This document shows positions 1,291-37,102 of a stretch of 64,000 bases of DNA, piece by piece. The stretch is from Dipteris shenzhenensis. Its lineage: Eukaryota. Location of the stretch: NCBI GenBank assembly GCA_047967505.1, contig CM106538.1, one strand, 5' to 3'. Every line of letters begins with the position of its first letter. Within the stretch, counting starts at the first letter, position 1. The notes under the pieces are model-generated. The model was given only the letters and a program-made list of their open reading frames with translations, made no database searches and had not been told where the DNA came from. Position numbers and translations under genes: made by a program.

Positions 1291-1825
1291 TTGAGGAATT
1301 GTTTATGTGGTGAGGGACTAACATTTCTATATACTACACTATCGATGATACAAGACTATTCTAAAATACACGCTATATGGACATTTGTTTAGTAAGGTCC
1401 ATATATCACAAAGTTTACATAAGTAAGGATAACATGTTTTTTTGAGAAAAAAAATAAGCATTACATATACTCATAGTTACATGCACTTTTTGTATGATTT
1501 ACATTTGTGAACATATTTTTCATGAAATCACATATGCAATGATGACAAAACCTTCTTGCACTAAAAAAGTAGAAAAACTACTATTTACCATTGATGCTAT
1601 GACTTTCTTCATCGGTCTAAAAAACATAAAGTAGACTACTACTATCGATAGTACTTGTTGATAAAGGCAATCATGGCGTAATAGGTATGACATGCCACCA
1701 CCTATTATTATCCACCATTGGTTGATAGACAACCTAATTCAAACACAAATACAATCATGTTATTTTCCTTGCATCGAAGGTATCAAATATTTAAAAGTGA
1801 GTATTTTTATATGTGTGTACAATAC

Positions 1826-3580
1826 CTATTCACATTGTTGCGGTAGTACTAGTGTGTCCTTCTTACTTTGCCAAAACTTTGTGGAGTCAATAGTTACAAA
1901 GCCATTTGCATGGTGTTTGATTGTTGCATTAGGGCCTCTTTCCACCACGTCCTTAAACCACTTGACATCCAAAACATACACAAAGAAGCGTCGAAAGTCA
2001 AGCTTAATAATATCTTGGAATTTGCCACAATAATCATCCATGGCTCCATTGGCTCCCTCAAAGCTAGCAATGACGCCGCAATCTTGTGTGTCTCTCTTAT
2101 CATCAATCCGTTGTGTCCGAAATGCCTATCCTCACACCATATACCATTGAACATAGTACACTACACCAAGATAAAATCAATTAAATAAGCAATCTAAATT
2201 GCTGAAAACCCCTAACTTATGCATAACATTCTATATACCAACCTTGCTCATGCATCCCCTAGCATACTTCCATTCTTCCATTGTGATATGCATCTCCTCG
2301 TCTCTCTCTGCTCTCTCCATTTTGTCAAGTAGCCAATCCACATGAATATCCTTTGGAAGTACTCTTAGATGCTGAGGGTATGGCACACGAGATCCGTGGT
2401 GTGTACGAAAGAGGGCCCTTTCTCCTTGTGTTCTGGCCTTTGCATCCTTGTATCTTGTCACCCATCTTTTCATCACATCACTATTAAGCATGCATTAAAG
2501 GTTGATATTATTAAGAAACTCCTTGTCTATTACTTTGCTCTATCCTTTTCCTTGAGGCACAATAGAGGTCATCCTTAGGTCTTCATCATCTCTCCATAGT
2601 CATGGGAGAGAGCTATCCACATCAACAAGAAACTCAGAAATATATACAAGTGACTCCTATACCAACCAACCCTCAGCCATGCTACCTTCGGGCCTTGCAT
2701 TTTGTCCCACAAAACCCTTCAAGGTCTTCATGAAGCACTCTAGGAAGAACAACCATTGTGCATGTACAATGCCGCATATAGCAATCTCATCCACCAAATG
2801 CACTATGAGATGTAGTTGGCTTGTGAGAATAGAATGTGGAAAAGTCTCCTCCACTAAACAAACCACCTCCATTGACATAACTCGAGCATTCTCAAGCCTG
2901 GTAGGATTTATTTCCTTTGAGCTCACATACCTAGAAAGGAAAAAGTATACCATATTAGCAATATAAAAACCTTGCATGGAGCATTAATACGCTTCACATT
3001 TTGTATCTTATAACGTATCTCACAAGCTCGCCCATCTTGTAAATACAATCCTTCACATCGTTTGATGCACTACAAGAAATGCTAGTGGGTAGTTTTGAAC
3101 TGAACACAAGAGGAATGGTCAATTAGTTGCTTCTAATTCACTCACAAATTTGGAAGAAAAAAGAGATTATGCACATAAAATACTTACTTGGAGCATCTTG
3201 TGCCAATCATGATATTTCAAGCCATATAATTGCTCTACACCTCTTTTCTTGCTCTTTGTGAAGGCCCCCTTTAAACACCTCATGCATCTAGTGGGAGTAT
3301 GAATTGTAGTGATAGCTCGCTTCACTACTACCATCTCTAGCTTTGATAATCTCCATGGTGCACAAGGTAAAAAGACACGCCCATTTGGCCTCTCGTGTGG
3401 CCAAGCTTCACACATCCTCCATGTGGTGCGTAGATCCTCCCTTATGCCTGCGGAATCTTGTGTCCCATTCAAATGTTCCCAAATGGTAGACGCCACATTC
3501 TTGAAGATATGCATGGGATCAAGTAGGTGATTGATCTTGAGGTGGGACCAATATGGTAGTCGATAAAAGATGGACTATCT
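1826..3580 (-). pseudogene. CACTA/En-Spm TnpD transposase, C-terminal half (DUF4218/DUF4216-type), diverged family, intron-containing and degenerate
   Basis: Peptides 'MHIFKNVASTIWEHL', 'GLKYHDWHKML', 'HLIVHLVDEIAICG..FLECFMKTLKGFV..ARPEGSMAEGW' and 'YCGKFQDIIKLDF..DVKWF' match En/Spm transposase motifs. Cut off just before the TIR at 3604. Confidence 0.9.
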
Positions 3581-4086
3581 AAACAAAAGCTGGTATTAGC
3601 ATGCACTACAAGGCATAGGTCCTTTTCTGGCAAAAATACCGACCTTTTTTACACTAAATTTTTTTTTTTGAGGGGTGCAAAGGTCGTTATTCACGTAGTG
3701 ATAAGCGTCAAAAAATAAACATCGCTATATAGCGACACTGGTAAACGTCGCTATATAACAACACTGGTAAATGTTGCTATATAGCGACGATTAATAGAAG
3801 CTTTAAAAAAACATTAGTGGGACTAAATAGGGCCACAACAAGCCATGTTTTGCCCCACTAATGTTTTTTATTTAGTAATTACAAAAGAATGTTTTTTATT
3901 ACAAAATTTTCCTTGTGGAAAGGGTGATACACAATCGCTGAAATGAACCGAGTGACATAAGCATATACATATTGAAGATATGCAACATTGTTTGTTACAA
4001 AATTACCCTTTCGAAAAGGGTGATACAAAATCGCTCAAACGAGCTGATATATAAAAGCATATATATGGCGAAGTATATGTAAACTA

Positions 4087-5681
4087 CTATTGCTCATCCA
4101 AATCATTGTCATCGTTGTCCTCATCTTGTTGGCCCGATCCTTGGCCCTCGTGAGCTGCGTCTGATCCCTGGCCCTCATGAGTTGCGCCTGATCCCTGGCC
4201 CTCGTTGAAGCCATGTAAGCCTAATCCCTCATCATCACTGCTCACCTCTGCTGATGGGACGTTTGAGCTTTGATTCTAAGAGTGAAACCATATTAATTGG
4301 AAATTAGATTAGAACGTAAAGAATAAGACAGTTTAAAAAGTGAGATTACAAGTAGGAGTAGACTTATACCATGCGAGCAGCCACCTTAGCCCAATTGACC
4401 GTCACTCCCAGTGCCTCTTGCTCAATAAACCATGGCTTTGTTCCTATGCAAAATGCACATCTCGTCTCTATGTGTGTAGGAAGGCGACCCATTATAGCTT
4501 GCTGTGGGCCCAATTTACAAGAGTTAGATAAAGTGCATGCAATATATAGTAAAACAAATAGAACAATACATTAAATGAGAAGAAGTAGACTTACCACGAT
4601 TGCCTCGAATGCCAACCGTCTGCCTGCACCAAAGTGCGAAGTACCTACGGAGTCCAGGTGTCTCCTCGCAGCCCTTCTCTGACCCTCGAACATTTCGGAA
4701 TGGTCCCTATTTTGCTTCTTGAAAAACTTCCAATCAGCTTTGTCTGCCTAGCTGGGTTTAGCCTTCCTCTTTGCGATGGAAGTATGCAAGGTTGACCTAT
4801 GATGCTTCAAGACCAAACCCATGCACTCTCGCATGTAATTCTCATTGAACTCCCAACTTGGGGGGTTAGGGTATTTTCTTTTCAATTCATTGATGACTGC
4901 CTGCTTCTTTTGGTCATCTTGGTACCGCCAGTCTAGTAGCTATGCCACTCTTGAAGTGGTGGCTCATCAACCACCTCATGGTGGCCATCACCGTTGCGCC
5001 CTTTTTATCTTCTATTATCTCTCCAGCAACCATGATTTGATAGGACAGGTCCTCGACCGGGTAAGGAGGACTCATGGTAGTGGTAGAGTCAGAGCAAGTG
5101 GTGTTTGTGCGAGCACTTCCGGAGCGAGGAGTAGTAGTGGGAGTAGGAGAGGGCAAGGGACCTGACTGGTACTGGGTCTCGGGACCAAGTGGAGACTTGT
5201 AGGGATGTGAGTGTGTTGACTCATCTACATCTCCCGAGTCAGCACAACATAAGTGACCCCTCCTACTCTTCCTTCCCTTACGATGGGCATGCCTAGGTGA
5301 AGGGGCTAGAGGGGACGACTGGACAATAGGTCCAACCATCGATGTAGGAGAGAGATTTGCTGAGGTCCTCTGGAATAGTAGAGAGAAGAATCTCGCTGCC
5401 TCCGCATCGGTCATCTGTGTAACAAACTCGTCAGGACTCCCGTCAAAGCCATGGGCTGCTAGCAAAGGAGTTCCCTGAGGGGTAGTCACAGTGCTATGTC
5501 AGGGGTAGTCGGGCCAGGGGTAGTCACATTGCTATGTCAGAGGAGTCAGGCCAGGGGTAGTCGTAGGGGTAGGCCCCTAAGGTGTCACCTAAGTGGAATC
5601 AAAGTCCTCTGGAGAATAGAGATCATGATGTCTCCTCTTACGAGGGTTTTCATACTCCTCGAACGTGCAACGTGATCCCAT
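4087..5681 (-). pseudogene. TnpA-like (Ptta/En/Spm Transposase_24-type) ORF2 of copy A
   Basis: Homologous to 17409-18962: 'PLLAAHGF..SPDEFV', 'GEIIEDKKG..VMATMR.LMSHHFKSGI', acidic tail. ATG at 5681 follows an AG acceptor; frameshifts and stops present. Confidence 0.7.
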
Positions 5682-5749
5682 GTCTTATTTGGGGGGATCG
5701 GACAAATGCAGACACAAACACGAAAACAAAAAACAAAAAACAAGAGAGG

Positions 5750-7300
5750 GAAAGCATATGCATAAGAGAAGGAGAAGCATAAGAGAAGCAAAAGAGAAGG
5801 AGAAGCATAAGAGAAGGAGAGGGGAAAAGAAGAGAAAGAAAAGGGGAAAAGAGATTGAAAGAGGGGAAAAGGAGCAAATATGCATAAGAGAAAAAAGAGA
5901 GAAAGCATATGCTTATGCTTATGCATAAGCATATGAGCATATGCTCATGCATAAGCATAAGCATAAGCATAGGCATAGCTATGCATAGGCATATGCTTAT
6001 GAAAAGAAGAGAAAGCATATGCGTAAGAGAAAAAGAGAGAAAGCATATGCTTATGCTTATGCATAAGCATATGAGCATATGCTCATGCATAACCATAAGC
6101 ATAAGCATAGGCATAGCTATGCATAGGCATATGCTTATGAAAAGAAGAGAAAAAGAGAGGGAAAAAGAAGAGAAGGAGAAGGAGAAGGAGAAGGAGACAT
6201 ATGCTCATGCATAAGCATAAGCATAAGAGAAGAAAAAACATATGCATAAGAGAAAAAGAGAGAAAGCATATGTTTGAAAGAGGGGAAAAGAGATCAAAGA
6301 GGGGAAAAAGAGATTGAAAGAGGGGAAAAAGAAGAGGGGAAAAGAAGAGAAGGAAGAGGGGAAAAGAAGAGAAGGAAGAGGGGAAAAGAGATTGAAAGAG
6401 GGGAAAAAGAAGAGGGGAAAAGAGCATAAGCATAAGAGAAGGAAGAGGGGAAAAGAGATTGAAAGAGGGGAAAAAGAAGAGGGGAAAAGAAGAGAAGGAA
6501 GAGGGGAAAAGAGATTGAAAGAGGGGAAAAAGAAGAGGGGAAAAGAGCATAAGCATGAGAGAAGGAAGAGGGGAAAAGAGATTGAAAGAGGGGAAAAAGA
6601 AGAGGGGAAAAGAAGGAAGAGGGAAAAAGAGATTGAAAGGGGGGAAAAAGAAGAGGGGAAAAGAGCATAAGCATAAGAGAAGAAAGAGGGCAAAAGAGAT
6701 TAAAAGAGGGGAAAAAGAGATTGAAAGAGGGGAAAGGAGATTGAAAGAGGGGAAAAAAGAAGAGGGAAAAAGAGATTGAAAGAGGGGAAAAGAAGAGGGA
6801 AAAAGAAGAGAAGGAAGAGGGGAAAAAGAAGAGAGGAAAAGAGCATAAGCATAAGAGAAGGAAGAGGGAAAAAGTGCATAAGCATAAGAGAAAAAGAAAG
6901 AAAGCATATGCTTATGCTTATGCATGAGCATATGAGCATAAGAGAAAAAGAGAAAAAGCCATATAAGCTAAAGACTTATGCATGAGCATATGAGCATATG
7001 CTCATGCATAAGCATAAGCATAGGCAAATACATATGCTTATGAAAAGAGAAGAAAAAGAGAGGAAAAAAGAGGTGAAAAATAAGAGAAGGAAGAGGGGAA
7101 AAGAGATTGAAAGAAGGGAAAAAAAGAGGGGAAAAGAGCATAAGCATAACAGAAGAAAAACATATGCATAAGAGAAAAAGAGAGAAATATTATGCTTATG
7201 CTTATGCATGAGCATATGAGGGAAAGAGGGGCGGAAAGAGAGAGGAAAAGAGGAAAAGAGGGGAACAAGAGGGAACAAGAGAAGAGAGGGGAAGAGAGGG
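5750..7300. repeat. GCATAA/TTATGC hexamer and polypurine minisatellite inside the putative TnpA 5'-UTR intron (7400 to 5684, minus strand)
   Basis: ~138-bp tandem duplication (~5885-6150) and ~120-bp purine-only units (~6310-6680). Minus-strand donor CCAG|GTAAGA at 7400 and acceptor AG|ACATGGGA at 5684. Confidence 0.8.
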
Positions 7301-7998
7301 TTTGTACACCCATCACTACAGCTAGCGCATAAGGCGCTAGCTGCAGGCCAATGCAAATAACGAAAATAACAAAATGAAAAAAGAGGAAGTACTTTCTTAC
7401 CTGGAAAAGTCGCGCTCAGTGTTTCATGGACTGGCCCTACAAAAGAGAGGAAACATACCATTTTTCAGATAACTAGTTAAAGGAAGGAGGAGTTTAGAGA
7501 TGCAACTTCTCAAAGGGATTGGATTGAGGAGACAAGCATAAGCCTACAAACAAGGAGAAAGCATAAGCCTACAACAAGGAGAAAGAGGAGGAAGAGAAAT
7601 ACCAAAAAGAGCAAGAGGTGAGTCTTCTTTCTTTCACCAAATCTCGTTTTTTGTCCTTAACCTCTGAAAATCAAGCATGAAAATTAGCACATAGCCTTAG
7701 CAATACAAGGAGAAACATGCTTCAACACTCACAGAACGAAATCTCACAAAAGATGAACCTACATTGCTTAAAGAGATTCACCCTCTTGAAAAACTTCCTT
7801 TCACACAAGCAGAGAGGGAGAAGGGTGGAGAGGGAGCACAAGTGTTGGGAGAGGGGATGGGTAGGGGTGAGGAGTGGGGAATAGAGAGGAGGAAAGCGAG
7901 GTCGTCGAATATAAGGTGGGAGGAGAGATTTTTACTTTTCTCGCAATAGAGATGTGAAAAATGGCATTGCGTGGGGTTTTGGGTTTAAGCCCCTAGTG

Positions 7999-8132
7999 TC
8001 GCTATATAGCGACGCTAGTCAATCGCTATATAGCAACGTTTATATCCACAAAGCGTTGCTATATAGCAATGGAACATGGCAAAGAATCGCTATATAGTGA
8101 CAGTTCAGGGCAAAGCATCGCTATATAGTGAC
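7999..8132. promoter_or_regulatory. Internal cluster of palindromic TCGCTATATAGCGA motifs (putative TnpA-binding sites)
   Basis: About 5 perfect or near-perfect copies of the motif that also flanks the TIRs. Homologous cluster at ~24942-25177. The binding role is inferred from maize En/Spm. Confidence 0.6.
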
Positions 8133-8245
8133 GGCGGTTCAGGGCACTTATTGTCAGAAGAGAGAAAAGGAGATCATGGATGGCTATTTTTTGGATCTTA
8201 ATAGATTTCCTTATAGCTCATGTTGTGATTTTGGAAGTGTGCAGA

Positions 8246-8832
8246 TGGAAGGGACGAGTGGAAGCTTGTTAGATGATGCGCCAATGCCCGAGAGCGTAGA
8301 GTGGCTTACGGAGAGGTTGTATTATCATTGCACTCATTGCAAGTGAGAAGTATGACATCAACGTCATATTGTCATGCGCCACTTGCGAATGTATGGGGAG
8401 GAGCCCGAACCAGTACCCACCATTGGTGTTGCATGTGGTGATGGATCATCGGTAAGTCAATGCTATTTAAGTTCGTGATGATTAATATTGGATACAATTA
8501 TGACACGAAACCTTGAGACAAGATCTTATATTGACACAAAATCTTGAGATAGGATGAGGAGGGTGGCGAGGGTGCACATATACCTTCACACTTTGAGCAA
8601 GACTATATGTGCCGGATGATGACGAGGATATGGCGGACATGATGGATTCTATTTTCAGGGGCACTACATCACATATACACGTGAGGTCAGAGTCTGAGGT
8701 CAATATGCGAGACTTGCAATCAACACAGTTGTACGAGGGTGCTAGGATGTCTAAACTACAGGCTTGTCTCTCAATCTTGAATCTGCAAGCAAAGTATGGG
8801 TGGTTGGACACAAGTGTCTCGGCCTTAATGAG
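8246..8832 (+). pseudogene. TnpD N-terminal exons of copy A (transposase-associated region)
   Basis: 'YHCTHCK..HIVMRHLRMYG', GT-AG intron 8452-8552, then 'QLYEGARMSKLQACLSILNLQAKYGWLDTSVSALMR', resembling the PLYxG..SKL..GWSD motif of TnpD. Internal stops. Confidence 0.8.
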
Positions 8833-9868
8833 GTTAGCTCCCGCATTAATTTGACTCATTACTTGGATATTGTTTGTTTTGAAAATCATCATTATTTGAA
8901 GCCTATGTATGTTTGAATTGTGACTCTCTTTTATTATTGTCTCTTTTATCCTCTCTTCTCGTCTCTTTTCTCCTCTCTTTTTCTCTCTTATCTCCTCTCT
9001 TTTTCTCTCTTTTTTCTCCTCTCTTTTCCTCTATTTTCCTTTCTTTTCTCCTCTCTTTCCTTCTCGTTTTTTCTCCTTTATCCCCACTTTTTCTCTTTTC
9101 ACTTTCTGCACATCAAACCTTCAAATCTCCAAGGTTCCTTAAAAAAGGCCACATGGTAGATAAGGTGGTCAAATTTAACTGTGGTTAGGTTCAACTGCCT
9201 AGGCTAGTTGAACCATGGTAAAATTTGTGTAACCTTAGGTTAACCAAACTAGGTTAAAAAGTCACCAGTGCCACCTAAGCACAAAGTCCCTTGCTAAGCA
9301 CAGTATGGAATTCAGCATGTGAATCCCTGTCCCACATCATCAAAGGCCCTCTTCTTTATAGAAAATTCGACAAGCCATAACTTGCAATCCAAGAAAAATT
9401 TGGCCATGCTGCAAAAAGGAAAAGTGATTGTCTTTTTGAGCTCTATGTGCCTGTTGAGTCAGAATCATTGTATGCAATTAGACACTGCCAATATTGAAAG
9501 AAATAAATTGGTAAGACCTTTGCAACAAATGACAAATCAAAGCATGAATGCACACATCATTGTCATAAGAATGCCAAAAGCACAAGTGCATGAGATGACC
9601 ATAGCACGAAGCATGGCATCCACACATAAAGCATCAAGGCACATGGAAGAACAAAGCATCATGCATGAAGCTACACAAGGAAGAAGATTGTAGATTGAAT
9701 AACCAGCAGGTCAACTACATAGCATCGTCATCAAGCCATGAGCCAAAAGATGACATCAATGGAATGTATTGAGAAACAAAAAACCTTGCCAACCTTGCCT
9801 ATATTTTGTAAATCAAAACCTGACCACCTGAGAGTAGCCATGTAGGCACCCAGGGGAGGATTTGATCT

Positions 9869-13640: not shown

Positions 13641-16600
13641 GCATGCATGAGCATGAGCTTATGCTTAAGTTTCCCCCTTCTTTATGCTTCTATTTCCGCA
13701 TAAGCTTATGCTTATGCATGACCTTATGCGGAAATAGAGAATGAGAGAAGCATAAGCTCATGCTTATGCTTCTCTCATTCTCTATTTCCGCATAAGCTCA
13801 TGCTTATGCATGAGCTTATGTGGAAATCGAGAATGAGAGAAGCTTATGCAGAAACTCATTCTCTATTTCCGCATAAACTTATTCTCTATTTCCGCATGAG
13901 CATAAGCATGAGCTTATGCTTATGCTTATGCTTATGCATAAGCATAAGCATAAGCTCATGCTTATGCTCATGCATGAGCATGAGCTTATGCTTAAGTTTC
14001 CGCATAAGCTTATGCTTATGCATGAGCTTATGCGAAAATAGAGAATGAGAGAAGCTTATGCAGAAACTCATTCTCTATTTCCGCATAAGCTCCTTCTCTA
14101 TTTCCGCATGAGCATAAGCATGAGCTTATGCTTATGCTTATGCTTAAGAATAAGCATAAGCATAAGCTTATGCTTATGCTCACTGCTTAAGTTTCTACAT
14201 AAGCTCATGCTTATGCATGAGCTTATGCGGAAATAGAGAATGAGAGAAGCTTATGCGGAAACTCATTCTCTATTTCCGCATAAGCTCCTTCTCTATTTCC
14301 GCATGAGCATAAGCATGAGCTTATGCTTATGCTTATGCTTATGCTTAAGCATAAGCATAATCTTATGCTTATGCTCATGCATGAGCATGAGCTTATGCTT
14401 AAGTTTCCGCATAAGCTCATGCTTATGCATGAGCTTATGCAGAAATAGAGAATGAGAGACGCTTATGCGGAAACTTATTCTCTATTTTCGCATAAGCTCC
14501 TTCTCTATTTCCGCATGAGCTTATGCTTAAGTTTCTGCATAAGCTCATGCTTATGCATGAGCTTATGCGGAAATAGAGAATGAGAGAAGCTTATGTGGAA
14601 ACTCATTCTCTATTTCCGCATAAGCTCCTTCTCTTTTTCCGCATGAGCATAAGCTCATGCTTATGCTCATGCATGAGCATGAGCTTATGCTTAAGTTTCT
14701 GCATAAGCTTATGCTTATGCATGAGCTTATGCAGAAATAGAGAATGAGAGAAGCTTATGCGGAAACTCATTCTCTATTTCCGCATAAGCTCCTTCTCTAT
14801 TCTCGCATGACCATAAGCATGAGCTTATGCTCATGCATGAGCTTATGTGGAAATAGAGAATGAGAGAAGCTTATGCGGAAACTCATTCTCTATTTTCGCA
14901 TAAGCTCCTTCTCTTTTTCCGCATGAGCATAAGCTCATGCTTATGCTCATGCATGAGCATGAGCTTATACTTAAGTTTCTGCATAAGCTCATGCTTATGC
15001 ATGAGCTTATGCGGAAATAGAGAATGAGAGAAGCTTATGTGGAAACTCATTCTCTATTTCTGCATAAGCTCCTTCTCTTTTTCCGCATGAGCATAAGCAT
15101 GAGCTTATGCTCATGCATGAGAATGAGCTTATGCTTAAGTTTCCGCATAAGCTCATGCTTATGCATGAGCTTATGCGAAAATAGAGAATGAGAGAAGCTT
15201 ATGCGGAAACTCATTCTCTATTTCCGCATAAGCTCCTTCTCTATTTTCGCATGAGCATAAGCTCATGCTTATGCTCATGCATGAGCTTATGCAGAAATAG
15301 AGAATGAGAGAAGCTTATGCGGAAATAGAGAATGAGAGAAGCTTATGCTTATGCTTAAGCATAAGCATAAGCATAAGCTCATGCTTATGCTCATGCATGA
15401 GCTTATGCGGAAATAGAGAATGAGTTTCCGCATATGCGGAAATAGAGAATGAGAGAAGCTTATGCGGAAACTCATTCTCTATTTCCGCATAAGCTCCTTC
15501 TCTTTTTCCGCATGAGCATAAGCATGAGCTTATGCTTAAGCATAAGCATAAGCATAAGCTCATGCTTATGCTCATGCATGAGCATGAGCTTATGCTTAAG
15601 TTTCCGCATAAGCTCATGCTTATGCATGAGCTTATGCGGAAATAGAGAATGAGAGAAGCTTATGCGGAAACTCATTCTCTATTTCCGCATAAGCTTCTTC
15701 TCTTTTTCCGCATGAGCATAAGCATGTGCTTATGCTTATGCTTATGCTTAAGCATAAGCATAAGCATAAGCTCATGCTTATGCTCATGCATGAGCATGAG
15801 CTTATGCTTAAGTTTCTGCATACGCTTATGCTTATGCATGTGCAGAAATAGAGAATGATCGAAGCTTATGCGGAAACTCATTCTCTATTTCTGCGTAAGC
15901 TCCTTCTCTTTTTCCACATGAGCATAAGCATGAGCTTATGCTTCTATTTCCGCATAAGCTTATGCTTATGCATGAGCTTATGCGGAAATAGAGAATGAGA
16001 GAAGCATAAGCTCATGCTCATGCTTATGCTTCTCTCATTCTCTATTTTTGCATAAGCTCATGCTTATGCATGAGCTTATGCGAAAATAGAGAATGAGAGA
16101 AGCTTATGCGGAAACTCATTCTCTATTTCCGCATGAGCATAAGCATGAGCTTATGCTTAAGTTTCCGCATAAGCTCATGCTTATGCATGAGCTTATGCGG
16201 AAATAGAGAATGAGAGAAGCTTATGCGGAAACTCATTCTCTATTTCCGCATAAGCTCCTTCTTTATTTCCGAATGAGCATAAGCATGAGCTTATGCTTAA
16301 GTTTCCGCATAAGCTTATGCAGAAATAGAGAATGAGAGAAGCATAAGCTCATTCTCTATTTTGGCATAAGCTCCTTCTCTATTTCCGCATGAGCATAAGC
16401 ATGAGCTTATGCTCATGCATGAGCATGAGCTTATGCTCATGCATGAGCATGAGCTTATGCTTTAGTTTCCGCATAAGCTTATGCTTATGCATGAGCTTAT
16501 GTGGAAATAGAGAATGAGAGAAGCTTATGCTTCTCTCATTCTCTATTTTCGCATAAGCTCATTCTCTATTTCCCACTCTATTTCCCCCTTCTCTCATTTC

Positions 16601-17230
16601 CCCCTTCTCTCCTTCTCTATTTCCGCATAAGCTCATGCTTATGCTTATGCGGAAATAGAGAAGGAGAGAAGCATAATAGAGAATGAGAGAAGCATAAGCT
16701 TATGCTTATGCTTCTCTCATTCTCTATTATGCTTCTCTCCTTCTCTATTTCCGCATAAGCATAAGCATGAGCTTATGTGCTCTCATTCTCTATTTCCACA
16801 TAAGCTCATTCTCTATTTCCGCATAAGCTTATGCTTATACTTCTCTCATTCCCCCTCATCTCTTTCCCCCTTCTCTCATTCGCATAAGCTTTCCCCCTTC
16901 TCTATTTTCGCACAAGCTTTCTCTTATGCATGAGCTTATGCGGAAATAGAGAATGAGAGAAGCTTCTCTCATTCTCTATTTCCACATAAGCTCATTCTCT
17001 ATTTCCGCATAAGCTTATGCATAAGCATGAGCTTATGCGGAAATAGAGAATGAGAGAAGCATAAGCATGAGCTTATGCTTCTCTCATTCTCTATTTCCGC
17101 ATAAGCTCATTCTCTATCTCCACATAAGCTTATGCTTATGCTTCTCTCATTCCCCCTCATCTCTTTCCCCTTCTCTATTTCCCCCTTCTCTCATTCTCTA
17201 TTTCCGCATAAGCATAAGCATGAGCTTATT
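13640..17230. repeat. Hairpin/palindromic satellite of GCATAA/GCATGA hexamers and a GGAAATAGAGAATGAG module in both orientations
   Basis: About 18-20 units of variable length (~115-215 bp), most containing GAGCTTATGCGGAAATAGAGAATGAG-17nt-CTCATTCTCTATTTCCGCATAAGCTC (e.g. 14219-14287). Confidence 0.95.
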
Positions 17231-17408
17231 CTCTCTAACTCTTCTTCTCTATTTCCCTTTTCTTCCTCTTCTCTTTCCTTTCCCTCTTCTTTCCTTTCCA
17301 TCTTCTTTCCCTCTTTCCTTTCCCTCTTCTTTCTTCTCGCCTATGCCTATGCCTATGCTTATGTTTGTTTTTTTGTTTTCTGTTTTCGTGTTTGTGTCTA
17401 TGTTAGAC

Positions 17409-18962
17409 ATGGGATCATGTCGCTCATCCGACGAGTACGGACAGCCTCGCAAGAGGAGAGCTCACAATCTATATGCTCCAGAGGACTTTGATTCCTCTCA
17501 AGCGACTACCTCGAGGACTACCCCTGGTCCGACTCCTCATGGACCTAGCACTACGACTACCCCTGGTCCGACTCCTCTTCCACGTAGCACTACGACTACC
17601 CCTCGGGGAACTCCTTTGCTAGCCGCGCATGGCTTTATCAGGAGTCCCGATGAGTTTGTAGCGTAGATGAGCGATGAGGAAGTAGCGAGATTCTTCTCTC
17701 TGCTCTCTCAAAGGATCTCAGCAATTCCTTCCCATACACCGACGGGTGGACGTACTACCCAACCATCCCCTTGTGCCCCTTCGACCACGGGATCATCACC
17801 TGCGCATGCCTCTCGCAAGGGAAGGAAGAGTAGGATGGGCGGCTCATGTGGTGCTGACTCAGGAGATGTAGACGAGTCAGCACACTCATGCTCCTTTAGG
17901 TCTCCACTTGGTCCGGAGACACAGTATCTCAATCAGGTCCCTTTCCCTCTCCTACTCCACTGCTACTCCTCGCTCCGGAAGTGCTCGCGCAGCTTCCACT
18001 CCTTCAGACTCTGCTACCGTCAATCCCCCTTACTCATCAGGGGATCTCTCCTATCAAATCACATTTGCCGGAGAGATAATAGAAGATAAAAAGGGCAAAG
18101 CAGTGATGGCCACCATGAGGAGGTTGATGAGTCATCACTTCAAGAGCGGCATAAATACCGATTGGCAGTATCAAGATGCCCAAAAGAAGCAGGTGGTGAT
18201 CGATGAGTTAAAACAAAGATACCCTAATCCACCAAATGTGGAGTTTATTTGACGATTATATGCGAGAGCGCATGGGTTTGGTCCTGAAGCATCGTAGATC
18301 AACCTTGAGTACTTCCATTATAAAGGGGTTGGCTAAACCCAGCTGGGCAAACAAAGCTGATTGGAAGTACTTCAAGAAGCAACATAGGGACCATCCCAAA
18401 ATGTTCGAGGGTCAGAGGAGGGTTGCGAAGAGATGGCTGGATGTCGTAGGTACTTCGCACTTTGGTGCAGGCAGACGGTATACGTTGGAGGCAACCGTGG
18501 TAAGTCTACTTCTTCTCATTTAATGTATTGTTCTATTTGTTTTACTTACATATTACATGCACTTTAGCTAACTCTAACTCTCGTAAATTGGATCCACAGC
18601 AAGCTGCGATGGGTCATCTTCCTACAGATGCAGAGACACGACGTACATTTTGGATAGGAACAAAGCCGTGGTTCATTGAGCAAGAGGCAGTGGGAGCGAC
18701 AGTCGATTGGGCTGAGGTGGCTGCTCGTACGGTATAAGTTTACTCCTACTTGTAATCTCACTTTTTAATTTAAGTTCCAATCTAATTTTCGATTTATATG
18801 GTTCACTCTTAGGGTCAAAGCTCAAGCGTCCCATCATTGGAGGCAAGCAATCAGCAGGGCCAAGGATCCGACGCAGGTGGCGAGGATGAGGGAGAAGACA
18901 CAGGTGTCGAGGACCAAGGAATAGGCCAACAAGATGAAGATGATTTGGATTCGGATGAGTAG
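17409..18962 (+). pseudogene. TnpA-like (Transposase_24-type) ORF2 of copy B, three coding exons
   Basis: TTAG|ACATGGGA start; T/P-rich N-terminus; 'DWQYQDAQKKQVVIDELKQRYP', 'KPSWANKADWKYF..GTSHFGAG'; GT-AG introns at ~18500-18599 and ~18732-18812; acidic tail. One stop (17664) and two frameshifts. Confidence 0.75.
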
Positions 18963-19739
18963 TGGTAGTAGCATTTTGTATATCCGCTCGTTTGAGCAAT
19001 TTTGTATCGCCCTTTCGATAGGATAATTTTGTTACAAACACTGTTGTATATGTCCGACATGTATATGCATTTGTTACTCATCATTTCACAAGAACAATTT
19101 TGTATCACCCTGCAAGCAAGGGAAATTTTGTTATAAAAAACTTTCTTTTGTAATTACAAAAAAAAAAAGGATTAGTGGGGCTAAACAGGGCCAAAAGGAA
19201 GCCCTGTTTAGCCCCACTAACCCTTTTTTTTTACTTCTGTTAATCGTCGCTATATAGCGACGTTTACCAGTGTCGCTATATAGCGATGATTAACAGTGTC
19301 ACTATATAGCGACGTTTTTAGTGTCGCTATATAGCGACGTTTGCCAGTGTCGCTATATAGCGATGCTTTATAACGATGGTCCTTTTCCGACGCTTTTAGC
19401 GACACTTATAGTGACATTTGCGCCCGTGAAAAAAAAAATTTAATGTAAAAAGCGTCGGTATTTCCATCGAAAAATGGCCTATGCCTTGTAGTGAGTGCAA
19501 GGGCTCATCGATTGGTATTTTATTCACCGTGCAGTGTTGTATTACATCGTGCGGTATATTCAGCCTAAAACTGCACAGTGTTATGATACATCGAGTGATA
19601 TTTAGCCAATCAACCGCTGGTTATTAAAAACATTTTTTTAATGCATTTTGAATGTCCACAAGCGTTTTAAAATTAAAAAAACGTACTTTTCTTTTAAAAA
19701 ACGTACTAAAAATATCCTAGTGGATTGGTTTAGGACACT

Positions 19740-23180: not shown

Positions 23181-26100
23181 CACTACAAGGCATAGGCCCT
23201 TTTCCGATGGTTACGCACTGATGTTTAGCATGCATGGGGCGCAAATCATCGGTATGCAAAGCGGGCTTAAAAAGTATCGCTATGTAGCGACACTTTTATA
23301 AACGTCGCTATATAGCAACGTTTATAAAGTATCGCTATATAGCGACAATTGCCAAACTTGTATAAGGTCATTATATAGCGATGTTTTATAGAGTGTTTTT
23401 CCCCATACCAACCTTTAAAGGTAGTTTTACCCAATGACAAAAAGATTTCTTTTCATACATGTTTGATCCTTTGAAAGAATAAAAGTACAAGAGCATGTAC
23501 ATCAAGTTTGAAGCTCATATATTCATGTCCACGTTTGAGACTTGGCTTCATCCTGAGCCAAGTCTAGTGTGCCAAGCAAGTATATCTACAACTCTATACT
23601 AAGTTGATCTCCTATGTCATCATCGTACTCTAGCATCATACGTTCACCATAGACTTGATTATCTTCTTCAATAAAGTCGGGTTATTCTTGATGATCGTCT
23701 TCTTCTTCCTCAATATCATGATCTCCATCTTTCTCCCATATGATGTCATTATGCACATCTTTCTCTTGGCTCATATTGTGATCGCCATCTTCTTCTCTAA
23801 ATTCATCTGGATCAATTGGATCTGGCATTGGTAGTGGCACTTCCATATCCACGTCTCTATCTTCAAAAATATGCTTACTTGGTGGTGCAACTTGGATCAC
23901 GTACCACCATCTTGGATCAGAATGATCTACATGACAAAACCACCTATATTGAAGATGGGTGCCAAATGCCATCAATTATATGAAACTATGCTTAAGTACA
24001 TGTAACAATTAATATGTAAAAACGAAAGATTCAATTAATTAAATCATTAGTATGCACCTGCTCACAATGCTCAGGAAGAACAAAGACCATCATAAATAGT
24101 TCTAAACCATTTTATACATATGAAAATACTAAATCATCTGAAATTAATTTCATAGATTTTGTGTATGGTCCCATAATAATCCAACTACGAGGAGAGAAAA
24201 TTGGTATCCGAAGCACTTGCTCGGCTGTCTTGTGTGAAGTTAGCCATGACTCCACAATCATACGCGACTCTCTTTGAATCGATGTGTTCTACACAAAAAT
24301 GTCATTGGTATGTCTAGGAGCTCTGGAAATATTAAAGACCCGTACTCTTATCCATAAGATCTATAACTCCTCTATCAAAGTTACCATGTACATAGCCTCA
24401 TACTCAGACATCAGTTGCATTGCCCCTAAAAATAGAATCCATCATGTCCACAATACCCTCGTTATCATCTAGCACATTTGGGAGACTATACTCCTTCTCA
24501 AAGTGTGAAGGTATATGGACACCACCCTCCTCATCCTGTCTCAAGGTTTTGTGTAAATATAAGATCTTGTCTCAAGATTTCGTGTCGTGTACGCATGCAA
24601 TATGAATCACGAACTCAAATAGCATTGACTTTCTGATGATCTATCACCATGTGCACCACCAATGGTGGGTACTGGTTTGGGCTCCTCCCCATACATCCTC
24701 AAGTGGCGCATGACAATATGGCATTGATGTCGTACTTTTCGCTTGCAATGAGTGCAATGACAATACAACCTCTCCGTAAGCCACTATGCACTCCCGAGCA
24801 TTGGTGCATCATCTGACAAGCTTTCACTCGTCCCTTCCATCTACACACCTCCAAAGTCACAACACAAAATGTAAGGAAATCCATAAAGATCCAAAAAATA
24901 GCCACCCATGAGCTCCTTTCCAGATCAAGTGCCCTGAATTGTCACTATATAGCGACGCTTTGCTCTGTTTTGTCGCTATATAGCGATGCTTTAGGAGTAT
25001 AAGTAAATAGTGAACTTTTAGGGTATAAGTGTCGCTATATAGTGATACTTAGGGTTAAAGATTGCTATAAGTATCGCTATATAGCGATACTTTTAGGATA
25101 TGAGTGTCGCTACCTAGCAATACTTTTAGGGTATAAGTGTCGCTATATAACAAATGACTAGTGTCGCTATATAGCGATGCTGGGAGTCTAAAACCCGAAA
25201 CACCGCACGATGCCATCTTTCACAACTCTATTGCAAGAAAAGCAAAAATCTCTCCTCCCATGTTTTCCTTCTCTATTTGGTGATCTCTCTTTCCTCCTCT
25301 ATTCCCCACACTCCTCACTCCTATCAAGCCCCTCTCCCATTGACACTTGTACTCCCTCTCCACCCTTCTCCCTCTCTACTTGTGTGAAAGGAAGTTTTTC
25401 AAGAAGGTGTGTTTCTTTAAGCAATGTAGGTTCATTTTTTGTGAGATTTCATTTTTTGAGAGTCGAAGCATGTTTCTCCTTGCTTTGCTAAGCCTATGTG
25501 CTAATTTTCATGCTTGGCTTTCAGAGATTAAGGACAAAAAACGAGATTTGCTCTTCTCTTTTTGGTATTTCTCTTCCTCCTCTTTCCCTTCCTTTCATGC
25601 TTTCTCCTTGTTTGTAGGCTTATGCTTGTCCCCTCAATCCAATCCCTTTGGAAAGTTGCTTCTCCAAACTCCTCCTTCCTCTAACTAGTTATCTAAAAAA
25701 TGGTATGTTTCCTCTCTTTTGTAGGGCTAGTCCACGAACTTTTCCACGTAAGAAAGTATTTCCTCTTTTTTCCTTTTTTTGTTTCCGTTATTTGCGTTGG
25801 TTTGTAGCTAGTGCAGAGATGGGTGTAGGAACCCTTTCTTCCTCTCTCTTCTCTTATTCCCTCTTCTTTCCCTCTTTTCCTCCCTCTTTCTCCCCTCGTT
25901 CCCTCCCTTTGTTATTTCCTCTTCTTCCTCTCTTCTCTTCTTTTCCCCTCTCTTTTTTCATTCTCTTTTCCCCTCTTCATTCCTCTTCCTTCTCTTCTTT
26001 TCCCCTCTTTTATTTCCTCTCTTTCATCCTCTTTTCTCTTCTTTTCATAAGAATATGCATTTGCCTATGCTTATGCATGAGCATATGCTCATATGCTCAT

Positions 26101-26340
26101 ATGCTTTTCCCCTCTCTTTTTTCTTCTCTTTTTTCCTCTTCTTTCTCTTCTTTTCCCCTCTCTTATTTCCTCTCTTTCATCATATTCTTTTCTCCTCTTT
26201 TCATAAGCATATGCATTTGCCTATGCTTATGCATGAGCATATGCTCATATGCTCATGCATAAGCATAAGCATAAGCATATTCTTTCTCTTTTTTCCTCTC
26301 TTTTCTTCTTTTCCCCTTTATTTTTTCCTTCTCTTTTCCC
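23181..26340 (+). mobile_element. CACTA family copy C: TIR, internally deleted TnpD (-), internal palindromes, start of the TnpA intron
   Basis: CACTACAAGGCATAGG at 23181; motifs at ~23277-23380; TnpD C-terminal and N-terminal pieces on the minus strand (~23540-24860); donor-like GTAAGAAAG at 25748; GCATAA repeats to ~26280. Confidence 0.9.
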
Positions 26341-26689
26341 CTCTTTCACACGAGCAAAGAGGGAGAAGGATGGAGAGGGAACATGTGTTGGGAGAGGGTT
26401 TAGAAAGGGGTGAGGAGTGTGGGAAAGAGAGAGGAGGTATTGGCTCTATTCCACAGCTTCTGTGGGAAGAGCAGGGTATTCTCAGTATGCAGGGCTTTGA
26501 GGCTTTTTGTCACCTACAAATATATTAGGGTTGTCATTTATAGTATATGTGTGGCGGGCTTAGGACCTCGAGTCATATTCTGGTGAGAGACGTAGGCTTA
26601 AATGTAGTGAGCAAACATAGTGCATGCATGTGTAAAAGGAACGTGTATCATCATGGTTGAGGTAATGAAGGCTTTCGCCTTCATTGGGG

Positions 26690-26999: not shown

Positions 27000-29348
27000 C
27001 ACTACTACACATGGATCCTATTGGACCGTTTAAGTACCAACATTTAGTGCGTGCGGGGCGCTAATCATTGATATGAAAAGCACATCCTGTAAAGCATCAC
27101 TATATAGTGTCTTGAGGCAAACGTCACTATATAGCGACTATTATAAAAGTGACATTTTTCAGAGAGGTTTTTTACTCATATAGGCCTTAAAAGTTAGTTT
27201 TTTCCAATGATAAATTTTTTTAAATTTTCATACATGTTCGATCTTTTGAGAGAATAAAAATATGAGAGCATGTACATCAAGCCTTTGAAGCTCATATATT
27301 CATGTCCAAGTTTGAGATGAAAAAAATTCAATGAAGAGCATTTACATCAACTGTTTCATCTTGAGCCAAGTCTAAGATGCCAAACAAGTCTATCTCCAAC
27401 TCTATACTGAGTTGATCTCCTATATCATCATCGTACTCTAGCATCGTACGTTCATCTAAAAGTACTTGATCATCTTCTTCAATAAAGTGCGGTGATTCTT
27501 GATGATCGTTGTCTTCTTTCTCAATATTGTGATCTCCATCTTCCTTCTGTGTGATGTCATTATGCGCATCTTCCCTTTGGCTCATATTGTGATCTTCATC
27601 TTCGCTAGATTCATCAAGATCAATTGGATCCGGAATTGGTAGTGGCATCTCCATATCCACATCTCTATCTTCAAAATTTTGCTTACTTCATGGTGCAACT
27701 TGGATCACGTACCACCATCTTGGATCGGAACGATCCAAATGAAAAACCACCTATATTGAAGATGGGTGCCAGATGTCGTCAATTATATATATGAAATTAT
27801 GCTCAAGTACATGTATCAATGGATCTTTAAAGACGAAAGCTTCGGTTAATTAAATCATTAGTATGCACCTGGTCACAGTGCTCGAGAAGAACAAAAGTAT
27901 TACTTTCATCAATCCAATGTTTGGTGGAGTCTATTGCAAAGAAACCGCTACTATCTTTTCTCACTGTCGCATGGGGACCATTGTAAATAGTTCTAAACCA
28001 TTTTACATCAAGAATGAAAATACTAAATGGTCTAAAATCAACTTCATAGATTTTGCGTATGGTTCCACAATAATCCAATTATGAGGAGAGAAAATTAGTA
28101 TCCGAAGCACTTGCTCGGCTATCTTGTGTGAAGTTAGCCATGACTCCACAATCATACGTGACTCTCTTTGAATCGATGCGTTCCACGTGAAAATGTCATC
28201 CATATGACCATAATGCACTGTACTTTTTGTACTATAAAAGAGCATCATTAAAACAATGAAGATGCATCTATTTTATAGCGTATATTGCCACAAATAATTA
28301 CTTAATTATGTCAAAAGGTAAGAAACTTACATGCATCATACATCTAGATGATAACTCTCGCTCGTGCTCGTTTATTGCCTCTCCATCGCATTCGGCTTTA
28401 CGTAGAGCGAGTTGTAGCCAATCAAGTGAATGTGAGTGGGGAGAAGAGCCAAATCCCATGGATATGGTTGCGATGGCCTGTATATTACTCTGAATCTCGT
28501 CCTTGCATTTATTCTTTTTACTTTGGTCACTTCATATCTCTCAATCCACTTCTGCATCTCAGGGTTATTGAGGATACAAAACTTATTGAATTTCTCCATT
28601 TGCTCTTCGCTCATCTTTCTTTCGATCCCTTTTCCTTGGGGAACCTCGCCAACGATGCGATCATCATCCTTGTTATGCCAAGCCTAGAGCATATCGGGAT
28701 CCGTGGTCTGTGATATATACTAATGACTTGCACAAGCCATCCCTCTGCCATGCTTGCTTCTGGTCTTGCTCTTTTTCTTACAAATCCCTTCAAAGTTTTC
28801 ATAAACCGCTCGAGGAAAAACATCCATTGACTATGAACGGTACCTGCAATAGCCACCTCATCAACTATGTGCACAAGCAAGTGGACTTGAGTTGTCATAA
28901 TGCTCGAGGGAAAGTGCTTCTCAAGCAAGCATACGGCTTTGATGGATTCCACCCTAGCCTTCTCGATGCTTGATATGGAGATCTATTTTTGAGATATCCA
29001 CCTATTTCACATGTCCATGTAAGATATTTGAATAATCAGCCTACAGATTAATCAGCTTAAATTGAAGAAAATGCAATCAATGCGATTTGATAGTAAGCAT
29101 ATCTCACAATACCACATATCTTGAATATAGCATTTCTAACATCTTCTTGTAAGCACCCTTTTATTGTAATTGGGAGGATGAACTATCAAAGCAACAAAGA
29201 AGTCATGTCAATAATATAACATAATCATAATTATGCTAACGCATCACGATTATCAGCACACTAATTGTACAGCTTAGAATACCTATAAGACCTTGTGCCA
29301 ATCATGGGACTTGAGCCCAGTAAGCTTATTGTCCTTTGAAAATGCTCC
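27000..29348 (-). mobile_element. CACTA family copy D: degenerate TIR and TnpD C-terminal exons
   Basis: CACTAC at 27000; terminal region resembles 23181-23520; 'QVHLLVHIVDEVAIAG..FLERFMKTLKGFVRKRARPEASMAEGW', 'DYCGTIRKIYEVDF..DVKWF', acidic tail ending at 27328. Confidence 0.88.
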
Positions 29349-29670
29349 AGTGAAGATAGGCCTCGAGATAGGAGTGGGGTCACTTGCTATGAATGTAATG
29401 AAAAAGGTCACTATCGCCCCGAGTGTCCTAGATTGAGAAAGAAAGAAGAAAAACAAGTATCCTTGTTAGAAGCTTCTTCAGGGGATGAGGAAAGAGAGGT
29501 AATGATGGCTAAACGGGGGCATGGTAAAGCAAAAGAAGAAGAAGAAAGTAAGAAAGAAGTAGATGAGGAACATCAGGAAGAGGAACAGCGTAGTAAGAAA
29601 AAGAAGGCATCTAGAAGGAGAATTAGCTAGTCAGACTTTCCTTTAGGACAAGGAATTGGAAGCGAGTGGA
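29349..29670 (+). pseudogene. LTR retrotransposon gag fragment with a CCHC zinc knuckle
   Basis: 'VTCYECNEKGHYRPECPRL' followed by a charged linker. Confidence 0.7.
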
Positions 29671-30107: not shown

Positions 30108-32220
30108 TATGTTTGAGAATCATCATTATTCGAAGCCTATGTATGTTTGAATTGTGATAGGTTGCTCCAAAAGGTGTTTCCTGCACCAAATACCATCAAG
30201 AGATGAAGCAAAGAAGATGCTAATAATAGTGGGTATGGAATATGATACCATCCATGCTTACCGTAATGATTGTATTCTCTTTCGCCCACCATGAGCATGG
30301 AGATTTGGCTAGTTGTCCAAAGTGTGGGGAACAACTTTATAGAGATGACTTGCAAATAGATACCGATAAAGGTCTTGAGACACTTTCCCATCATTGCAAG
30401 AATACAGCACATGTTCCGATGCAAATCCATAGCGGAGTTGATGACTTGGCATGCATCTCATCAGTCCACTGATGACACATTGAGGATTCACACAGATTGT
30501 GCAGCCTGGAAGCACATAAACAATCAGTGGCCGGACTTTGTGAGGGAGCCACGCAACTTACATCTTGGGCTCGCCATGGATAGTGTGAACCCTTTCGGGT
30601 TACGCTCAACATCTTGGTCGACATGGCCCATAGTCTTGGTGAATTACAATATCCCACCATGGCTAACAATAAAGAAGGGACACCTCATGCTTGCACTACT
30701 TGTGCCAAGGAAGTACAAGGCCAAAAATATGGACATGTACATGGCACCTTTGATAGAGGAGTTACATAGCTTATGAAGAGGAGTGTGGGAATTTGATATT
30801 TCTAGAGCTCCTAGACATACCAATGACATTTTGGTCAGGGGTATCTTGATGTGGACCATGCATGACTACCCAGGATATGGAGAGTGCACAGGTACATGGT
30901 TGTGTCTTTACATGTATAATATAGGATTATGCTTTTATGACTCTCTTTTGCGTGCATATCTTATACTAACACATTCATGCATGCATGCAGGACTTGTTAT
31001 AAGTGGGCACCATGCTTGTCCTGTTTATGGACCAGGTTTGAAATCACTTGCACGATACTCCAAAGGAAAAATGTTTATGAAGGTCATGCTCGATACCTTC
31101 CATAGGACCACATTCTATGCGTGGAGGTGAGCTTGATCCACCACTGCCATATTTGAAGGCAAGTGACTGGATTCAAGCTTGGAGGGCGAATGGAGAGGAA
31201 CCTCCTCATGGTATGAAGAGGCTATCCATCTTCATGAGCTTCCTTATTGGGGTCAGTTACAAATCAATCATCTCTTGGATCCCATGCATATCTTCAAGAA
31301 TGTGGGGGCTACTATTTGGGCACACTTGGTTGGTTCCAAAGATTCGAGAGGAGTGCGAGAAGACTTGTGTGCTATGAATAGGATGTGTGTGCTTCGAGAA
31401 AAGTTGTCCTCCCGAAAGCAACATGGATCCTCTCCAAGAGAGAAGACGCAGCGGTCAAGGCAAACATTACCTCTTTTCGAACACCCACAAGATACATGCA
31501 TTGCTTAAAAGGAGCATTTTCAAAGGACAATAAGCTTAGTGGGCTCAAGTCCCATGATTGGCACAAGGTCTTATGGCAGGTATTCTAAGCTGTAGGATTA
31601 GTGTACCAATAATTATGATGCATTAGTGCAATTATGATTATGTTATATTATTGACATGACTTCTTTGTTGCTTTGATAGTTCATCCTCCCAATTACAGTG
31701 AAAGGGTGCTTACAAGAAGATGTTAGAAATGCTATATTCAAGATCAGTGGTATTGTGAGGTATGCTTACTTTCAAATCGCATTGATTACATTTTCTTCAA
31801 TTTAAGCTGAATTATCTGTAGATTGATTATGAATATTCTAATACGGGCATGTGAAATAGGTGGATATCTCAAAAAGATATCTCCATATCGAGCATCGAGA
31901 AGGCTAGGGTGGACTTCATCGAAGCCATATGCTTGCTTGAGAAGCACTTTCCCTCGAACATTATGACAACTCAAGTGCACTTGCTTGTGCACATAGTTGA
32001 TGAGGTGGCCATTGTAGGTACCTTTCATAGTTAGTGGATGTTTTTTCTCGAGCGGTTTATGAAAACTTTGAAGGGATTTGTAAGGCAAAGAGCAAGACCG
32101 GAAGCAAGCATGGCATAGGGATGGCTTGTGCAAGAGTCATTAGTATATATCACGAAGTTTCTTGCATCCACGTATCCCGATATGCCGCAGCCTTGGCATA
32201 ACAAGGATGATGATCATACA
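30108..32220 (+). pseudogene. CACTA family copy E: TnpD core (Transposase_21 and DUF4218)
   Basis: 'LRHFPIIARIQHMF', 'AAWKHIN..PDFVREPRNLHLGLAMDSVNPFG..WSTWPIVLVNYNIPPW', 'LMWTMHDYPGYG', 'LPYW..HLLDPMHIFKNV'; GT-AG introns; frameshifts. Confidence 0.93.
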
Positions 32221-36090: not shown

Positions 36091-37102
36091 TCCTTCATCT
36101 CATGAGTTCCATGCATAGAAGTCTCAAATTTACAAGGAATCTTTTTAGCATTTTTATCTACAAAATCTTGTATAATTACCTTTAAAACCATATCCACATT
36201 GTTAAACCTCTTGAATGATGGTATTGTTCCCTTGTGTCACATTCCTTGATCCTTGAATGTACATTCTCTGGTACCTATGTAATAGACTGAAACAATGTAT
36301 CTTAACATAGATTGCAATTCAAAAGGGGAATGTAGTTATCAAGTCAATCAAGAAGATCGGGATCCTTGGTACATCAACAATGGTGCATCATCGCACATGA
36401 CAAAGCATCAGGAATGGTTCGATCGAGATGAATGCACGATCAGAGACAAAATCTAAAGGACATCAACTAGTAGGAAAAACAGTCAAGGACGGACGCTTGT
36501 TCAGAGTGCTAGCTTTAGTTCCAGATTTACATGCCATGTGAGCTCAACCGCAACAAATGCTATTTTCTGTAGTATGGCACAAGAGATATGGACATGTCAA
36601 TTTCAAAGGCTTGATATAGCTCAAAAATCAGAATATGGCAATTGGAATTCCGATGCTTCACTTTCTTGGAAAAGTTTGCGAAGCATGTTGCTTCAGTAAA
36701 CAAAAGAGAACCAATTTTGGTAAAAGCACCTCTTGAGCAAGTAGTATTTGTGATTTGATACACACATATGTATGGGGTTATGCATATACCCACAACATGA
36801 ATGGTTCACTCTACTACTTGACTTTCATTGATGACTACAGCAAATATTGTTGGGTCTACTTTCTTAAAGAGAAATCTGAAGTCTTTTCTAAATTTCTAGG
36901 ATTCAAAGCCATGGTTGCAGGTAGAAAGATCAAAGTCATGAGATCAGACAAAGGAGGTGAATACATGTCTTCAGCATTCATTAACTTTTGTACAAGTAAT
37001 GGCATTTGAAGACGATGCACTTGTGTAGATACACCTCAGCAGAATCCAAAAGCTGAAAGGAAGAATAGTACTTTAGCAGACAGTGCTAGAGCAATGCTCA
37101 AT

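Follow-up and report, generated by a model that had tools for sequence, protein, structure and literature searches.

We analysed a stretch of 64,000 nucleotides (the window) of contig CM106538.1 of the fern Dipteris shenzhenensis (assembly GCA_047967505.1), and most of the results given here refer to this window. It holds degenerate fragments of a single CACTA family, grouped within approximately 30 kb. The copies were mapped by self-comparison, by a search for transposon ends, and with the TnpD-type transposase protein P0041 (1135 amino acids, aa). The copies in this cluster are old and broken members of one CACTA DNA-transposon family, and none of them is active. Two genes are concerned: TnpD, the transposase gene, and a second gene, called ORF2 (open reading frame 2) below. 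In copy A, ORF2 lies on the minus strand and the N-terminus of TnpD on the plus strand; a single array, whose purine polarity is uniform, separates the two. The window data favor a divergent gene order in this family, without proving it.

Copy A extends from 3604 to approximately 8880. It contains, from left to right, an end on the plus strand, ORF2, the central array, the upstream region of TnpD, and a short TnpD fragment. The terminal inverted repeat (TIR; 3604-3633, plus strand) belongs to end type 1 and shares 24 of its 30 bases with the end of copy C. A subterminal cluster of the motif CGCTATATAGCG occupies 3700-3790, with two matches at 3723-3786. ORF2 is a pseudogene of three exons at 4087-5681 (minus strand), with its ATG at 5681 and an acidic tail before the stop at 4087-4089. 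The first-pass annotation had read this gene leftward from 5681 to 4087 toward the TIR, and the start codon, stop codon, and splice sites were all found. The central array (5690-7330) is built of purine-rich repeats on the plus strand, interleaved with a palindromic GCATAAGC/GCTTATGC minisatellite, and copies B and C contain the same units. It is followed by a unique region upstream of TnpD (7330-8000, plus strand), which is shared with copy C, and by an internal CGCTATATAGCG cluster (8000-8130) whose four matches lie approximately 50-250 bp upstream of the TnpD start. No CACTA end was found beside this internal cluster. The TnpD fragment (8176-8851, plus strand) is equivalent to approximately aa 1-200, and its frames are broken. 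It was first described as exons running rightward from 8246; the direction was right, the in-frame ATGs lie at 8176 and 8245 (about one base off), and only the N-terminal part is there. With some 200 residues' worth left, the gene is cut short at approximately 8880 by a segment of the central array in inverted orientation (8883-9185), which has inverted matches to 6559-7287.

To the left of copy A, the C-terminal half of a TnpD gene of another CACTA family (1817-3574, minus strand; P0041 aa 521-1025, with DUF4218 at 2660-2983) stops 30 bp short of the end at 3604. Copy A seems to have been inserted into this gene. The 5′ half of the gene is nowhere in the window, which points to a large deletion afterwards.

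In copy B (approximately 13642-19493), a large array is followed by plus-strand ORF2 and by a minus-strand end at 19493. Its array (13642-17400) begins as an expanded palindromic minisatellite and continues as a pyrimidine-rich array directly upstream of ORF2. The first 3.5 kb (13642-17150) consist of GCATAAGC/GCTTATGC-type units, palindromic in themselves and with periods of 116-280, and are enlarged from the short blocks seen in copies A and C. This part is likely a hotspot for hairpins and inversions. The ORF2 pseudogene of copy B (17407-18962, plus strand) reads rightward to the end of the copy, where a motif cluster (19248-19362) precedes a TIR of end type 1 (19464-19493, minus strand).

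Copy C (23181 to approximately 26440) starts with a TIR of end type 2 (23181-23210, plus strand) and a motif cluster at 23278-23344. Its TnpD gene (23685-24992, minus strand) has an internal deletion that joins the C-terminal part (from approximately aa 918-980 onward) to the N-terminal exons. The next stretch (24943-26340) consists of an internal cluster with five CGCTATATAGCG matches (24943-25176), the upstream region, and the start of an array that is pyrimidine-rich on the plus strand. On either side of this array lie the two arms of an inverted duplication (25292-25390 and 26343-26437), derived from part of the TnpD upstream region; the arm at 26343-26437 is closer to copy A (85.6%) than to its own partner (81.8%). 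Copy D (27000-29354) has a diverged end of type 2 followed, on the minus strand, by the C-terminal half of TnpD (P0041 aa 619-1048, including DUF4218). Fragment E (30196-32163, plus strand) covers TnpD aa 214-772 with Transposase_21, and is in part an inverted duplicate of D. The duplication (28659-29348 and 31511-32215) is 90% identical, and it leaves the TnpD fragments of D and E head-to-head, separated by approximately 840 bp. Between the two is an ORF (29340-29627) that encodes a zinc knuckle (zf-CCHC, E = 7e-5).

Self-comparison gave nucleotide identities of 79-81% between A and B, 80-83% between A and C, and 86-89% between C and D. The left half of A (4252-5854) matches B (18836-17246) at 79.2%, and its right half matches C in two blocks: 7250-8067 with 25882-25109 (81.3%) and 8081-8663 with 24992-24421 (83.0%). 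ORF2 is present in A and B only, and the TnpD N-terminus in A and C only. We regard the gene identities, strands, ends, motif clusters, and relations between the copies as established.

The ends are inverted and start with CACTA, as in the CACTA superfamily. Three CACTACAAGGCATAGG-type ends were found, at 3604 (plus), 19493 (minus), and 23181 (plus), where the 19-mer pattern used was expected 0.02 times by chance. Together with the diverged end at 27000 (plus), four ends have at least 17 of 30 matches. Of the 30 terminal bases, 28 are identical between the type 1 end of B and the type 2 end of C. Past these first 30 bases the two types are barely alignable: over alignment columns 31-130, identity is 65 of 86 for A and B and 36 of 52 for C and D, and between types 27-35 of 51-64 positions are identical, with 35-49 gap columns. 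Type 1 adjoins the 3′ end of ORF2 twice (A and B), and type 2 adjoins the 3′ end of TnpD twice (C and D). The distance from the ORF2 stop to the CACTA end is 483 bp in A and approximately 530 bp in B. The TnpD frames stop at 23685 in C, 500 bp from the end at 23181, and at 27331 in D, 330 bp from the end at 27000. Thus, the placement beside a TIR of ORF2 in A and B and of TnpD in C and D, as proposed on first reading, was borne out. The four ends sit in four different flanks, with the flanking triplets ATG, AGT, AAA, and AGG. No copy has an end on the upstream (5′) side of ORF2 or TnpD.

The palindromic 12-mer CGCTATATAGCG has 20 matches in the window, against 0.02 expected. It provides the short subterminal repeats in direct and inverted orientation that are typical of CACTA elements, and it is clustered at every end, with D retaining a lone match at 27125. 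Other candidate ends, CACTACAA at 3068 and 3311 and CTCGTAGTG at 32291, were judged to be chance occurrences; they lie in coding or intron sequence without a nearby motif cluster.

The ORF2 genes of A and B have in common the ATG context, two GT donors, and one AG acceptor. Copy A carries one frameshift and one in-frame stop, and copy B carries two frameshifts and one in-frame stop. A profile of 155 positions (alignment A5) was built from four unaltered frame pieces of the two copies, and a six-frame scan of the window with the profile found no ORF2 copies besides A and B.

The TnpD assignment of the fragment in A is supported by the segment at 8702-8836, which matches the TnpD-type proteins P0148 (E = 6e-10), P0178 (E = 3e-9), and P0041 (aa 155-200, E = 2.8e-7); tblastn placed the similarity at 8699-8836. 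Within 3604-8922, only this part, equivalent to aa 155-200, is significant, and the matches of the first-exon region are weak (E = 0.01-0.14). Pfam scans covered the ORFs of at least 70 aa in this span, which are part of a scanned set of 114, together with 74 ORFs of 35-69 aa and 8 further pieces; no TnpD Pfam domain and no Transposase_24 was found inside 3604-8922. The fragment is identified as TnpD also because the N-terminal exons of copy C run on into a C-terminal part homologous to that of D, which bears DUF4218. For the family as a whole, a TnpD-type transposase is evident from DUF4218 in copy D (28614-28982, E = 1.3e-20) and Transposase_21 in fragment E (30360-30773, E = 2.1e-32). The nearest named TnpD relatives are from Adiantum nelumboides, with 63-67% identity to fragment E. 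A plant-type Transposase_21 protein, P0018, is 65% identical to fragment E; it is labelled Enterobacter cloacae complex at NCBI, comes from an 898-bp contig, and is probably plant DNA contaminating a bacterial assembly.

The A5 profile was searched against 1.84 billion representative sequences, and 44 proteins were found at E ≤ 1e-3, 12 of them at E ≤ 1e-10. A wider profile, A6, found 22 proteins: 16 from Adiantum nelumboides, 2 from A. capillus-veneris, and 4 without a name. All 18 named ORF2 relatives of the A6 search (best E = 1e-62) are therefore from Adiantum ferns. The relatives have in common a domain of approximately 150 residues after a disordered, Ser/Pro-rich N-terminus. The second gene had been called TnpA-like and was expected to resemble Transposase_24, which Pfam did not bear out: no Pfam model, Transposase_24 included, matched the ORF2 pieces of the window, and Transposase_24 (PF03004) was found in none of 43 different ORF2 relatives. 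These relatives were scanned at several thresholds (29 of the 44 at E ≤ 0.01, 12 at E ≤ 10, and 14 further ones at E ≤ 1). Among the 30 protein language-model neighbours of P0134 residues 135-297, 24 are plant clusters without a name and the other 6 are clusters of PF03004; the highest score of a PF03004 neighbour is 0.90, with 129 shared features, which is a lead to distant kinship and not a test of it. A profile search of PDB sequences with ORF2 gave a best E of 0.37. A word-indexed search with one ORF2 piece gave 884 candidates, none of them significant, and an atlas search with the same single piece returned bacterial clusters alone, with scores below 0.9. To judge from the sequence, ORF2 is a genuine CACTA accessory gene and the positional analogue of TnpA, and it is possibly a distant homologue of TnpA. 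It is not a demonstrable member of the Transposase_24 family.

We believe, with a probability of roughly 0.55, that the divergent gene order is the architecture of this family and is best explained by a lineage-specific event that inverted the transposase module of a canonical ancestor. The polarity of the arrays is consistent in A, B, and C: the repeat unit immediately upstream of ORF2 in B (17224-17363) finds its match in the array of C on the same strand of the window, and in that of A on the opposite strand. Therefore, B and C tile into the divergent layout seen in A. In A and C, the TnpD upstream region can be followed into the array over more than 1.3 kb, and no CACTA end occurs along the way. 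Beyond the arrays, no sequence common to the right side of A, the left side of B, and the right side of C was found. The head-to-head junction was once thought to be repeated independently in copy C; C has no ORF2, its common ground with A is limited to the 5′ exons of TnpD, the upstream region, and the beginning of the array, and the full junction was seen once, in A.

Under the divergent reading, a full-length element would begin with end type 2 and subterminal motifs, followed by TnpD reading outward, the internal motif cluster, and the upstream region of approximately 700 bp. Its other half would consist of the purine-rich and minisatellite array, ORF2 reading outward, subterminal motifs, and end type 1. 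Transcription of ORF2 and TnpD would run outward in opposite directions, with a separate promoter for each gene. The simplest origin would be a canonical ancestor whose transposase module became inverted, because the Adiantum relatives have TnpD followed by ORF2 on one strand. Such an inversion would have moved the former 5′ subterminal motif cluster to its internal site ahead of TnpD. We infer that the divergent unit was itself mobile. TnpA of En/Spm binds subterminal motifs, and by analogy the ORF2 protein would bind the palindromic motif at the ends and at the TnpD promoter. The internal cluster would then let ORF2 regulate TnpD. The most far-reaching form of this reading is a still mobile, inverted-module fern CACTA lineage, with divergent genes across a satellite array, an internal cluster for direct control of TnpD by ORF2, and ORF2 as a fern counterpart of TnpA without a Pfam model. 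We put this forward only tentatively and would not give it even odds.

Several points weigh against the divergent order as a family trait. All of the copies are pseudogenes that are 79-89% identical, and both genes are present in copy A alone, which is itself truncated and broken. No two-ended copy exists in the window, hence there was no pair of ends for a check of the 3-bp target-site duplication. The A/B differences in ORF2 are nearly even over the three codon positions (approximately 0.16, 0.17, and 0.21; 299 aligned codons, with 2 of the 9 comparisons left out as mis-registered). This indicates little sign of constraint and mostly neutral decay. The junction in A falls within palindromic, rearrangement-prone arrays. 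Its TnpD fragment is bracketed by inversely oriented arrays (up to 7330, and 8883-9185), and three other inverted rearrangements lie in the same 30 kb (8883-9185; 25292-25390 and 26343-26437; 28659-29348 and 32215-31511). There is also a selection effect, in that the odd look of the locus was what led to its choice. The relatives of ORF2 weigh in the same direction. Among the 58 proteins matching the ORF2 profiles, 12 also hold a TnpD-like stretch, and it is N-terminal to ORF2 in all 12. Eleven of these are named Adiantum nelumboides and one (P0161) is without a name; the set includes four near-identical paralogues. Since a same-strand fusion is impossible in a divergent element, the Adiantum relatives are canonical, with head-to-tail genes. 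The accessory gene is encoded downstream of the transposase in all 12, and copy A departs from this with its genes on opposite strands.

The strongest competitor, which we consider possible but rather unlikely, is that the family itself is canonical (TnpD then ORF2 on one strand). Copy A would then be a local inversion, or two truncated copies joined in a palindromic array, and C and D would belong to a derivative that lost ORF2. The 12 fused gene models are head-to-tail, and P0176 shows the order DUF4218, DUF4216, and ORF2 along a single polypeptide. The inverted arrays around the TnpD fragment of A are exactly the pattern left by an inversion between inverted repeats, and further inverted duplications lie nearby. 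In addition, a deletion derivative of A. nelumboides, P0148, joins TnpD at approximately aa 95-211 to ORF2, near the break in A at approximately aa 200. However, the canonical family needs more events: a deletion common to the left half of A and B, an ORF2 loss common to C and D, the inversion, and several truncations. It also requires arrays of opposite polarity on both sides of TnpD, and in C and D the 3′ end of TnpD has no array after it. The four ends would all have to be 3′ ends, the 5′ type being absent from the set, and no candidate for the missing 5′ region beyond the arrays is common to the copies.

It is improbable that the window holds two types of element that have their terminal repeats in common, one non-autonomous with ORF2 only (the left half of A, and B) and one with TnpD only (the right half of A, C, and D), which abut in A by chance. 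Arabidopsis EN/SPM families with a TnpA-related gene alone do exist, according to PMC13547354. The distribution of ORF2 and of the TnpD N-terminus over the copies, and the divergence of the two end types past the first 30 bp, would fit such a pair. Nevertheless, no terminal repeat lies between the halves of A, and both halves enter the same type of array with matching polarity. In no copy does either type have a second end upstream of its gene.

A single compact central promoter that drives both genes, as the first-pass annotation had proposed, is still less probable. The genes do diverge in A, and a motif cluster lies between them, on the TnpD side. The divergent starts of a bidirectional promoter are usually less than approximately 1 kb apart; here the ATGs (5681 and 8176/8245) are approximately 2.5 kb apart, and about 1.6 kb of this gap is the minisatellite and purine-rich array. 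The length of the array is very variable, with approximately 3.5 kb in B and 0.45 kb in C. The conserved upstream region of approximately 700 bp and the CGCTATATAGCG cluster are found on the TnpD side only. Taken together, the large spacing, the variable array, and the one-sided upstream region and motifs make a compact shared promoter unlikely, and two separate promoters, as predicted from the sequence, more likely fit the locus. Last, a misjoin of the two halves of A in the assembly is very improbable. The junction does fall in 1.6 kb of minisatellite and purine-rich repeats, but the polarity of the array is uniform across the join and the same as in B and C, with no sequence mark of a break.

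The family was compared with known CACTA systems. In maize En/Spm, TnpA and TnpD are made from one transcript via alternative splicing, according to PMC13547354. The window family resembles En/Spm in its CACTA terminal repeats, short subterminal motif clusters, Transposase_21/DUF4218 transposase, and accessory protein near one end. It differs in that the genes of copy A are on opposite strands, where En/Spm-type elements have both coding regions on one strand, in that ORF2 has no Transposase_24 match, and in the internal motif cluster ahead of TnpD. PMC13547354 and bioRxiv 10.1101/2024.04.02.587720 describe a single gene with alternative splicing for Arabidopsis EN/SPM3 and 7, and two separate genes without overlap, placed head-to-tail, for EN/SPM2, 5, 6, and 9. 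The latter four are similar to the window family in having separate transposase and accessory genes, whose ratio is not set by splicing; their genes are in tandem, whereas those of copy A are head-to-head with a satellite array between. The earlier claim that splicing cannot set the TnpA:TnpD ratio concerns a principle that was already established for these Arabidopsis elements.

The CACTA elements of A. nelumboides (P0133, P0140, P0148, P0166, P0167, P0171, P0172, P0176, and others) carry the same ORF2 family. In contrast to copy A, with its opposite strands, TnpD is there upstream of ORF2 in one polypeptide. PMC8978399 and PMC13438062 describe an angiosperm CACTA "domain architecture type 3", with TAD, Transposase_21, DUF4218, and DUF4216, and then Transposase_24 in ORF2. 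The fern ORF2 domain occupies the slot that Transposase_24 has in this type, and differs in having no PF03004 match.

MuDR and PIF/Harbinger elements also have two genes that are not always co-oriented; they belong to other superfamilies and their proteins are unrelated. Full-text literature searches, with Repbase and TREP outside their scope, found no CACTA element with head-to-head genes. The proposal of an undescribed architecture therefore holds in so far as no such element was found in print; it does not hold in full, as the Adiantum relatives are canonical. If the layout is real, the orientation of the genes would be the sole new point, as a ratio independent of splicing is already known. 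A mobile divergent layout, if true, would join alternative splicing and tandem genes as a third mode in which CACTA elements express their two proteins, and would offer a natural test of whether self-regulation depends on how the genes are oriented and on where the binding-site cluster lies. If only a local rearrangement took place, the locus is an ordinary graveyard of nested transposons. The more solid by-product of this study is the ORF2 family itself, which lacks a Pfam model and may correspond in ferns to TnpA. It bears on a published claim, made in a 2026 paper, that TnpA-like domains are confined to flowering plants.

The rest of the window holds other mobile elements, and Rfam and tRNA scans of the window found no RNA genes. 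A decayed LTR (long terminal repeat) retrotransposon at 36737-38894 (plus strand) is represented by integrase core (rve) and retroviral SH3-like pieces. A copia-type LTR retrotransposon at 40613-46126 has LTRs (40613-40924 and 45815-46126) that are 98.7% identical, and long minus-strand frames for pol (892 aa) and gag (313 aa); it looks young and nearly intact. The region at 54000-60500 has a G+C content of 0.49-0.55, compared with approximately 0.40 elsewhere, and contains LINE-like (long interspersed nuclear element) reverse transcriptase and zf-RVT fragments on the plus strand.

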